NCBI GenBank assembly: GCA_000004985.1
Contig: GG739415.1
Source: Naegleria gruberi
Lineage: Eukaryota
Length of the DNA: 1,466 nucleotides
Strand: one strand, 5' to 3'
Shown here one piece after another: positions 1 to 1,466 of this stretch. The notes under the pieces were generated by a model, which worked only from the letters and a program-made list of their open reading frames with translations, did no database searches and had not been told where the DNA came from. The position numbers and the translations under genes were made by a program. Within the stretch, counting starts at the first letter, position 1; every line of letters starts with the position of its first letter.

Positions 1-602
1 AGTATGAGTTGAGCTGCAGCTTTTTCTTCTTCCTCCTTCACCAGTGCAACCTCCTCCTCACTACCTTCCAGCACGAATGGAAATAGTTTCATTTCCTCCT
101 CAATTGATAATGACGAGGCATAAAAATGATTGAATGTTGAAGTATTCTCAGTATGGGAATGAATAGACCCAAATCTTATTCGATTATTAACTGCCTCGCC
201 TCCATACATGTAATTGAAAGTTCTCCTCCAACAAGCAGACCACCACACTGCACTTCTCGTTACAATAAACAAATCCACCATCTCATTAAAATATTTACAA
301 CTCAACTGCAATTCCACCAATTCATGCAATGCAAAATAATCCAACACTGAATCCCTTACCACTTGCAAAATTTCCATAAATTGAATTGGATCTTTAAGAA
401 TTTTCTCATCAATTTTACAAATTTCCTTCACCTCATCATAAACTCCATATCCATCATCTTCATCATCATCTTCGGAATCATGTATTCTATGCACATCTTC
501 CGATTGGTTCATGTTATTGTGGTTAGGAAGTTTAATTGCTGTTGAGGAATCATCCTCCTTCTCATCACTCGATTTGACCTTAAAATAATCCAATAAACCC
601 AT
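1..602 (-). CDS. Partial CDS (3' end beyond position 1). Hypothetical protein with an acidic D/E-rich N-terminal region and an F-box-like segment.
   Basis: Hand translation of the minus strand from ATG 602..600 gives an open frame of about 200 codons with no stop down to position 1. The next upstream in-frame codon set is TAG at 611..609, so 602 is the first possible start. Translation: MGLLDYFKVKSSDEKEDDSSTAIKLPNHNNMNQSEDVHRIHDSEDDDEDDGYGVYDEVKEICKIDEKILKDPIQFMEILQVVRDSVLDYFALHELVELQLSCKYFNEMVDLFIVTRSAVWWSACWRRTFNYMYGGEAVNNRIRFGSIHSHTENTSTFNHFYASSLSIEEEMKLFPFVLEGSEEEVALVKEEEKAAAQLI... A 600-nt stop-free frame is very unlikely by chance in AT-rich DNA. The segment DPIQFMEILQVV...LVELQLSCKYFNEMV loosely fits the F-box pattern (LPxEIL...LxxVCKxWxxLv). 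That motif call is by eye only. The ORF is missing from the supplied track, presumably because it runs off the window edge. Confidence 0.7.
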   Translation of the reverse strand, partial: MGLLDYFKVKSSDEKEDDSSTAIKLPNHNNMNQSEDVHRIHDSEDDDEDDGYGVYDEVKEICKIDEKILKDPIQFMEILQVVRDSVLDYFALHELVELQLSCKYFNEMVDLFIVTRSAVWWSACWRRTFNYMYGGEAVNNRIRFGSIHSHTENTSTFNHFYASSLSIEEEMKLFPFVLEGSEEEVALVKEEEEKAAAQLI

Positions 603-620
603 CTCTCTCTATCACTCTCT
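603..620 (-). promoter_or_regulatory. Pyrimidine (CT) tract on the plus strand, equal to a purine AG tract on the minus strand, abutting the ATG of the 1..602 gene. It may be a leader or ribosome-binding context.
   Basis: Plus strand 601-620 reads atctctctctatcactctct. The minus strand therefore reads AGAGAGTGATAGAGAGAG immediately 5' of the ATG at 602. There is no canonical GGAGG Shine-Dalgarno motif, so a regulatory role is speculative. Confidence 0.2.
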
Positions 621-687
621 GATTGTTTCAATTGTTGAGCAATTCAACTATCAAATCAAACAACGACAATTTTTTTGAGTTTTTAAA

Positions 688-716
688 AGATGAACTTGGC
701 ATTCACAAGTTCATTT
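688..716 (-). terminator. Candidate stem-loop between the two tandem minus-strand genes. It could be an intrinsic terminator or a 3'-end processing hairpin for the LRR gene.
   Basis: Perfect inverted repeat ATGAACTTG (690-698) / CAAGTTCAT (706-714) around a 7-nt loop GCATTCA. An A:T pair at 688/716 can extend the stem. In the minus-strand transcript the stem is followed by CUUUUAAAAA. The stem is AU-rich with only 3 G:C pairs, so it is weak. It sits about 110 nt past the LRR stop codon and about 90 nt before the ATG of the downstream gene. Confidence 0.25.
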
Positions 717-721
717 CATAA

Positions 722-735
722 AAAATTGCAATTTT
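722..735. repeat. Perfect 14-bp palindrome AAAATTGCAATTTT in the intergenic spacer. Function unknown; possibly a dimeric protein-binding site.
   Basis: The reverse complement of positions 722-735 equals itself. It lies between the LRR gene stop (824) and the hairpin (688-716). A palindrome of this size and AT content is only mildly unexpected by chance. Confidence 0.4.
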
Positions 736-823
736 CTTTACAATCAAGAGTTTAGTTTGTGAAAGAAGATTGAAAGTGTTTATTGGAAATGAGAAAAGAG
801 GTTCAAAATGATGATAATGATTA

Positions 824-1147
824 TTACCATGAAAAGGAATAATTTAGAGGAATGACATGCTCATTCAATGGTGGTTTTTCCTTAATATTGAGCTTTACTA
901 ATTGTTTCAGATTATTATAAATTAATTCTTCCACATTCGAATCAAATAAATGTCCATAAATATCAAGACTAGTTAATTGTTTCATTTCCAATATCCATAA
1001 TAGTCCTTCCCTATCCAAACCACTAAATCTGAAAGCAAGTTCTTTCAGATTTGTCATTCTACTAATGATTTCTGCTAAAGGAGTTCCATTAAATTTGTTA
1101 TTGCAACTAATGTCAAGATTGGTCAATTGTGTCATTCTACTGACCAC
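824..1147 (-). CDS. Leucine-rich-repeat protein, C-terminal intact ORF segment (107 codons). Probably the 3' part of a larger, frameshifted LRR gene.
   Basis: ORF from the track with stop TAA at 826..824. The called start at 1147 is GTG, directly after frame-internal sequence. The first ATG is at 1135..1133 (MTQLTNLDIS...). The protein shows four LRR-like units of about 25-26 aa, each beginning M(K/T)xL: MTQLTNLDISCNNKFNGTPLAEIISR / MTNLKELAFRFSGLDREGLLWILE / MKQLTSLDIYGHLFDSNVEELIYNN / LKQLVKLNIKEKPP... The unit length and Cys/Asn positions resemble the cysteine-containing LRR type typical of F-box/LRR proteins. Confidence 0.6.
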   Translation of the reverse strand: MVSRMTQLTNLDISCNNKFNGTPLAEIISRMTNLKELAFRFSGLDREGLLWILEMKQLTSLDIYGHLFDSNVEELIYNNLKQLVKLNIKEKPPLNEHVIPLNYSFSW

Positions 1148-1466
1148 TTTAGCCCACTTTCGGTAAGATTAGTTTCAGAAATATTTAGTTTTCTCAATTG
1201 TTTCATGGTTGCAATCATTTCCAATTCATAGTCCATTATTCTTGTCATACTCAAATCGAGTTCAGTTAAATTTTTCAATTGACTAATTTTTTTCACTCCA
1301 TTTCCAATCTGAAATAATGTTTAAATCCAAATCGAGACATTTCATAATGATTTAAACTCAATTTAGTTAAATTCTTCATTAGAAACAGCGAGTCAACCAC
1401 AGATTTCACACCCAAAACACAAGATGATGGATTTTTGTCAAATTTCAATTCAACAATCGAATCATG
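824..1466 (-). pseudogene. LRR-repeat gene disrupted by two frameshifts (or two assembly indels). The 5' end lies beyond the window.
   Basis: Upstream of the intact ORF the same LRR periodicity continues on the minus strand in other frames. Frame A (1320..1135, closed by TGA at 1134..1132) reads TLFQIGNGVKKISQLKNLTELDLSMTRIMDYELEMIATMKQLRKLNISETNLTESGLKWSVE*. Frame +1 (1466..1296, closed by TGA at 1295..1293) reads HDSIVELKFDKNPSSCVLGVKSVVDSLFLMKNLTKLSLNHYEMSRFGFKHYFRLEME*. The units MKNLTKLSLNHYEM, LKNLTELDLSMTRI and MKQLRKLNISETNL match the units of the intact ORF. The shifts map to about 1293-1323 and 1132-1171. No intron with usable GT..AG and correct phase restores the frame. Confidence 0.5.

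Follow-up and report, generated by a model that had tools for sequence, protein, structure and literature searches.

A Naegleria gene for an acidic protein with a putative, divergent F-box-like motif, beside a probable LRR pseudogene

Results

The window, by which we mean the whole 1,466-nucleotide stretch of DNA analysed here, carries the 5' part of one protein-coding gene, an AT-rich spacer and an LRR coding region (Table 1). An earlier note on this DNA had drawn attention to about 200 consecutive sense codons on the minus strand, starting at ATG 602 and reaching the window edge, and retranslation bore this out: the frame 602->1 holds 200 sense codons from the ATG (602-600, minus strand) and is free of stops as far as the edge. 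Both peptides quoted in that note, HDSEDDDEDDGYGVYDE and DPIQFMEILQVVRDSVLDYFALHELVELQLSCKYFNEMV, are found in this translation. The remaining C-terminal ~178 codons lie past position 1, and the full-length relatives measure 378-389 aa, in keeping with the statement that the C-terminal part falls outside the window. The ORF is indeed missing from the supplied track because the ORF lister leaves out ORFs that run off the window ends. Two plus-strand ORFs that the track does list, 153..350 and 363..545, had been correctly described as antisense shadows; both lie wholly within the 602->1 ORF.

Table 1. Features of the window, with the evidence on which each is placed
Feature	Position	Strand	Evidence
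5' part of a 378-aa intronless protein-coding gene: first 200 codons	1..602	-	translation, P0001, L001, dN/dS
Trp-rich segment, residues 111-129, LFIVTRSAVWWSACWRRTF, directly after the motif	216..272	-	family alignment
Divergent F-box-like motif without Leu-Pro (putative), residues 80-110, QVVRDSVLDYFALHELVELQLSCKYFNEMVD	273..365	-	hhalign and F-box HMM
Residues 1-70: short conserved peptide MGLLDYFKVKSS, then acidic low-complexity region, probably disordered	393..602	-	sequence, poor model
Imperfect (CAT)n run, GAT/GAA codons on the coding strand, Asp/Glu stretch	452..481	.	Tandem Repeats Finder
AT-rich spacer between LRR remnant and ATG, 26-29% G+C	603..823	.	composition profile, sequence
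LRR coding region in three reading frames (1466-1293, 1296-1132, 1147-824)	824..1466	-	ORF list, Pfam, tblastn

Several observations bear on the coding status of this ORF. The longest stop-free run of the window spans 202 codons, against a mean of 77.6 and a maximum of 165 in 2000 mononucleotide shuffles. Comparison at the nucleotide level was made with L001, a 1728-bp ENA metagenome contig which encodes a relative of the product, P0001, as a single uninterrupted 378-aa ORF. Positions 1-714 of the window align with L001 at 94.9% nucleotide identity, and the alignment stops near that contig's end. The coding parts of the two differ by 8 synonymous and 3 non-synonymous changes (dS 0.074, dN 0.006, dN/dS 0.08), and all three indels that separate them consist of whole codons, located in Asn-rich and Asp/Glu-rich low-complexity stretches within residues 1-70. 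Since dN/dS is 0.08 and the indels are in frame, the minus-strand frame 602->1 is translated and under purifying selection, and the ORF represents a genuine coding gene. A scan of the whole window against Rfam found no RNA families. Outside the window, at positions 1301-1714 (minus strand) of L001, the convergent downstream neighbour encodes a 137-aa DUF4326 protein (PF14216, E 7e-20, 71.9 bits).

An exhaustive phmmer search for relatives of the 200-aa product, covering 1.84 billion representative proteins, returned three only. P0001 (378 aa) is 99% identical to the window product over residues 1-199 as measured by phmmer; P0002, which is N. gruberi XP_002674211.1 (NAEGRDRAFT_70608, 358 aa), is 36% identical over residues 1-185; and P0003, a 109-aa fragment, is 50% identical over residues 66-129. 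A further protein, P0004, shares the 90%-identity cluster of P0001; it is N. gruberi XP_002669805.1 / EFC37061.1 (NAEGRDRAFT_59851). This protein is named hypothetical protein by NCBI and, as UniRef100_D2W1K3, "F-box domain-containing protein". A word-indexed search of proteins with this 200-aa sequence as the query recovered no relatives, and a re-search of the protein collection with the family profile yielded no further members. In the family alignment the window product is 96-98% identical to both orthologous copies, P0001 and P0004. The 602->1 gene is an orthologue or allele of NAEGRDRAFT_59851.

The genomic setting of these relatives bears on the source of the DNA. NAEGRDRAFT_59851 is located on a 209,908-bp N. 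gruberi scaffold and NAEGRDRAFT_70608 on one of 362,555 bp, and the G+C content of the window (26-40% in the composition profile) agrees with the composition of the N. gruberi genome. No relative of the product was found among the IMG/VR viral contigs or in bacterial and archaeal genomes taken one per species for 185,579 species, and the window had no DNA match among the GenBank phages. The JGI metagenomes gave no match either with the family profile or with an exact 24-mer of the window. Judged by its relatives, the window is nuclear DNA of Naegleria, a free-living amoeba, from the N. gruberi group. The protein family is very small; apart from N. gruberi proteins, its members so far are all environmental sequences of unattributed origin. 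A literature search combining Naegleria gruberi with F-box showed, in titles and abstracts, no paper concerning the family of the window product.

The product opens with an acidic region. Asp and Glu account for ~31% of residues 1-71, which agrees with the D/E-rich N-terminus described in the earlier note, and a poor AlphaFold2 model assigns pLDDT values of 25-32 over residues 1-70. Within the Asp/Glu stretch, Tandem Repeats Finder reported a repeat of period 3 with 6.3 copies at 452-470 and one of period 12 at 453-481. A one-codon indel relative to L001 falls within this (CAT)n run, and whole-codon indels distinguish window, L001 and reference protein both in the Asp/Glu stretch and in the nearby Asn run. 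This codon-length variation between strains at 452-481 would fit replication slippage within a probably disordered region.

The reference model for the orthologue differs from the window product at its start. P0004, the JGI model, begins with MKQLTSLDIYGHLF and continues with DYFKV...; these first 14 residues are encoded within the LRR ORF 824-1147 (minus strand) of the window, at ~950-991. The paralogue P0002 begins with MGLMEKFKIKSS and the fragment P0003 with MVLFKSS, and both align with MGLLDYFKVKSS of the window, so that the N-terminal consensus peptide of the family reads (M)G/V-L-x-x-x-FK-x-(K)SS. Because P0002 and P0003 begin at the equivalent position, we conclude from the alignment that ATG 602 is the true start. 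The first exon of the reference model NAEGRDRAFT_59851 is probably an artefact, taken from the upstream LRR remnant, since paralogue and fragment begin at the equivalent of ATG 602, the spacer is AT-rich, and a reading of the window by eye found no GT...AG pair at the positions that the JGI junction requires. No part of the window is richer in A+T than the 220-bp spacer, which resembles an intergenic region and presumably serves the 602->1 gene as promoter and 5'UTR. Directly upstream of the ATG, at 601-620, lies a CT-rich run with two copies of ATCACTCTCT (AG-rich on the coding strand), possibly belonging to the 5'UTR or core promoter. We also weighed N-myristoylation at the MG start and rejected it: the consensus for this modification has Ser, Thr, Ala, Gly, Cys or Asn at residue 6, and residue 6 of this family is Tyr or Lys.

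On the far side of the spacer, each of the three LRR frames ends in a stop. The Pfam match to LRR_4 is sub-threshold (26.1 bits vs a cut-off of 27), and tblastn with LRR homologues gave colinear HSPs, with E values down to 4e-12, that switch frame at ~1147 and ~1300; residues 171-216 of the homologue P0007, for instance, are matched in frame -3 and residues 219-301 in frame -2. Tandem LxxLxLxxN repeats continuous in a single frame were not found at 824-1466. In a collection of 5.8 billion clusters no orthologous LRR protein was present, and the best protein match was an N. gruberi paralogue of 28% identity. We tried an intron as the cause of the first frame switch (a 49-nt GT..AG candidate at ~1356-1308) and rejected it, as it fails to explain the second switch at ~1147, where an intron is excluded because the repeat homology continues without spare bases. 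Poor sequence quality is unlikely to lie behind the frameshifts, since the adjacent F-box-like ORF is free of frame errors against L001. We consider the LRR region most likely to be a decayed, frameshifted pseudogene, separate from the F-box-like gene.

The earlier note had also proposed a segment resembling an F-box. A Pfam hmmscan at a nominal E<=10, which amounts in practice to about E 0.1 as the HMMER speed filters remove most weaker matches, reported no F-box family (PF00646, PF12937, PF15966 or others) for the window ORF or for P0001-P0004. A weak RNase_P_Rpp14 match of the window ORF in Pfam (E 0.16, 12.6 bits vs a cut-off of 23) was dismissed as noise, and phmmer of the window product against PDB sequences gave no match. 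For profile comparison we employed an F-box seed of 13 well-known F-boxes compiled by hand, among them Skp2, beta-TrCP, FBXW7, Cdc4, cyclin F, TIR1 and FBXL2. When this seed profile was run against the PDB, 49/49 sequences at E<=1e-3 were either named as F-box proteins or known as F-box carriers. Those outside the seed included FBXL5, FBXW8, FBXO3, FBXO31, KDM2A/B, GID2 and Legionella AnkB (5k35); KDM2A/B, AnkB and ECT2L are among the known F-box carriers. Since all 49 PDB matches are F-box proteins, the seed profile is specific for F-boxes.

Aligned with hhalign, the core of the family matched this seed with a probability of 79.5% (P 1.5e-5, score 28.9), residues 80-110 pairing without gaps with Skp2, and the full-length family alignment selected the same site. 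Column-shuffled core profiles scored 9.3 +/- 1.9 with a maximum of 17.0 (n=200) and reversed profiles 8-9, which places the observed 28.9 about 10 SD above the column shuffles. The family alignment behind these scores is very shallow (Neff ~1.8). Searched with the seed HMM with filters off, all members matched at the homologous position, with 16.0 bits for P0002, 9.3 for the window, 8.0 for P0001 and 2.1 for P0003; the match of the window spans residues 84-109, and among 1000 shuffled versions of the window product none exceeded 5.8 bits. Scores of 2-16 bits lie well under any curated family cut-off. Among the weak PDB profile matches of the family, the F-box of FBXO4 was the sole recognisable family at the motif site, at a non-significant E of 1.4.

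The motif departs from the usual F-box at two positions. That of Leu-Pro is taken by Ile-Leu, Thr-Met or Thr-Ile in the family, and the Trp of (V/C)-K-x-W is an invariant Phe (F105). Some genuine F-boxes likewise lack these conserved residues, Leu-Pro at the start of helix 1 and the Trp of (V/C)-K-x-W in helix 3, so that these losses lower the F-box claim without excluding it. AlphaFold2, run on an alignment of 4-5 sequences that was too shallow for it, gave unusable models, with a mean pLDDT of 36.8 for the full length and of 59.1 for an 86-residue core, which was all-helical; Foldseek returned 0 matches when this low-confidence core model was compared with the PDB. The F-box name of the orthologue in UniRef presumably comes from the PROSITE F-box profile, which would be an independent method. 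The outcome for the earlier proposal is mixed: the profile match places an F-box-like segment at residues 80-110, and at the same site in the paralogue, while Pfam recognises no F-box there. Of the two findings that had been named together as refuting it, the absence of an F-box HMM match was observed for Pfam, and a confident match to an unrelated family was not seen. It is plausible, if weakly so, that residues 80-110 are a genuine but very divergent F-box-like motif. Membership of the F-box family is not thereby established, since the motif scores above chance yet under every curated threshold.

The most conserved part of the family is the Trp-rich segment LFIVTRSAVWWSACWRRTF, in which R116, W120, W121, W125 and F129 are invariant. 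After this Trp-rich helix follow ~250 residues without a recognisable domain. The motifs YSS.GKSGSA.G.F, WWL and YD.YGPV..TE and a C-terminal SYY, all outside the window, are common to the orthologues and the paralogue. Pfam found no domain in the C-terminal region of the full-length proteins P0001-P0004, and the suggestion that this part might carry a repeat domain of its own was therefore abandoned, none being recognisable by Pfam in the full-length relatives.

A possible G-alpha relationship of the C-terminal half was traced to an artefact. When the family profile was searched against the PDB, the best 60 of the 70 matches were weak G-alpha matches on the C-terminal half (E 4.5e-4 to 0.36). 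These 60 were short G-alpha constructs of 229-326 residues together with one 492-residue miniGq chain, and no full-length natural G-alpha was among them. In three printed alignments, SSGKSGSA of the family was paired with GGSGGSGG of mini-G chains, which is their engineered linker. Natural human GNAI1, its sequence entered by hand, gave an hhalign P of 0.32 against the family. No significant resemblance to the Ras-like domain of a natural G-alpha, with the motifs G1-G5, was seen, and membership of the G-alpha family was rejected on these grounds. The YSS.GKSGSA.G.F motif itself (residues ~255-270 of P0001/P0002) retrieves dozens of mini-G-alpha PDB chains through the linker, and profile searches of PDB sequences can thus yield false leads through engineered linkers.

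Discussion

The closest known counterpart of the window gene is NAEGRDRAFT_59851, whose product is 96% identical over the aligned part and alike in domain order and motif sequence; it differs by a few substitutions, by whole-codon indels in the acidic region and by a first exon that is probably wrong. NAEGRDRAFT_70608 (358 aa, 'predicted protein') shares with the window family the N-terminal peptide, the F-box-like motif and the WW..W segment, as well as the TENTST, GKSGSA and YD.YGPV motifs and the SYY C-terminus. It differs in having 36% identity, in lacking the long Asp/Glu run and in bearing no F-box label in the databases.

Compared with canonical F-boxes (Skp2, FBXW7, beta-TrCP, FBXO4, TIR1; PF00646/PF12937), the window motif gives a gap-free profile alignment of ~31 residues, which covers most of the conserved core. 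Common to both are the hydrophobic pattern and the Cys-Lys-x-aromatic of the last helix, which reads SCKYF in the orthologue group and VCKRW in Skp2. As in most F-box proteins, the motif lies in the N-terminal half and is followed by a long C-terminal region. Unlike the canonical domain, however, it is without Leu-Pro, has Phe for Trp and ~four extra residues before the downstream Trp, and scores below threshold. In the C-terminal region of the family Pfam recognises no WD40, LRR or Kelch domain, nor another of the known substrate-binding domains. With the bacterial and viral F-box effectors such as AnkB of Legionella pneumophila (5k35), the window protein has only the class of F-box-like motif in common and, unlike them, it is encoded by the amoeba itself and not by a symbiont, pathogen or virus.

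The product of this Naegleria gene is a host protein rather than a pathogen effector, and we lean slightly towards the reading that it serves an SCF (Skp1-Cul1-F-box) ubiquitin ligase as substrate adaptor. In such an adaptor the F-box-like helices of residues 80-110 would dock on Skp1, and the lineage-specific C-terminal region would select the substrate for ubiquitination. The predicted layout of the protein comprises an acidic disordered N-terminus, the F-box-like motif, the conserved Trp-rich helix and ~250 domain-less residues. A more specific version of the adaptor reading is quite possible, though we would stop short of calling it probable: an SCF adaptor found in Naegleria or heteroloboseans alone, with a highly reduced F-box (without Leu-Pro, with Phe for Trp, then the WW..W..F helix) and a substrate-recognition region of ~250 residues for which the 1.84 billion representative proteins hold no relative outside the family.

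The main rival reading is that the Naegleria gene is real but the motif no functional F-box, residues 76-130 forming a lineage-specific amphipathic helical domain with no role in an SCF; the profile match would then reflect a shared heptad-like hydrophobic pattern together with a chance 'CK-aromatic' triplet. We regard this as rather doubtful, though it has several points in its favour. A Pfam F-box match is absent, Leu-Pro is missing, and Phe is invariant in place of Trp; the strongest conservation, WW..W..F, falls outside the hhalign match; and the predicted helices exceed the length of F-box helices, albeit in a low-confidence model for which Foldseek found no match. Such a domain would not, however, readily account for a profile-profile score ~10 SD over column shuffles, with reversed profiles at ~9, for two members only 36% identical that match the F-box HMM at the same column, or for the F-box name of the orthologue in UniRef.

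The remaining alternatives concern the origin and the extent of the gene. The earlier note had suggested that, were the source a bacterium or virus, the protein might be an effector mimicking the SCF adaptors of its host, in the manner of Legionella AnkB. There is general precedent for F-box proteins in amoeba-associated bacteria and giant viruses, and our F-box profile does detect AnkB (5k35) in the PDB. The nuclear assembly of N. gruberi, however, contains both the orthologue, on a scaffold of 210 kb, and the paralogue, on one of 363 kb; therefore the source is a eukaryote and the effector reading falls. That no relative was found in IMG/VR, the GenBank phages or the 185,579 bacterial and archaeal species genomes, and that the best-matching protein of the neighbouring LRR sequence is from N. 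gruberi (28% identity), likewise stand against a bacterial or giant-virus effector, which we judge very improbable indeed. It is also improbable, if less extremely so, that a single spliced gene takes in both the LRR region and the F-box-like ORF, as the JGI model NAEGRDRAFT_59851 implies. The first 14 residues of P0004 do match LRR ORF 824-1147, but P0002 and P0003 begin at the equivalent of ATG 602 with a conserved peptide, the LRR sequence lying upstream of the first Met of the JGI model carries frameshifts, no GT...AG pair was seen by eye at the required positions, and the intervening 220-bp spacer is the most AT-rich and intergenic-like part of the window.

The gene is already present in GenBank and UniProt for N. 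gruberi, with an F-box label in UniRef, and the window adds another allele. What the analysis contributes is in part a set of small corrections: the first exon of the reference model is probably wrong, the start being the equivalent of ATG 602, and the LRR region is probably a pseudogene. The existing F-box label is found to rest on weak evidence that lies below the Pfam threshold. Significance for host mimicry does not apply, as the gene is the host's own, and the importance of the finding is mainly one of annotation. If the F-box is functional, the protein would add a further lineage-specific SCF adaptor to the little-studied ubiquitin system of this organism; and if the reading as an adaptor with a reduced F-box holds true, the family would represent a new subclass of F-box proteins, and its substrate-binding module would be new as well.
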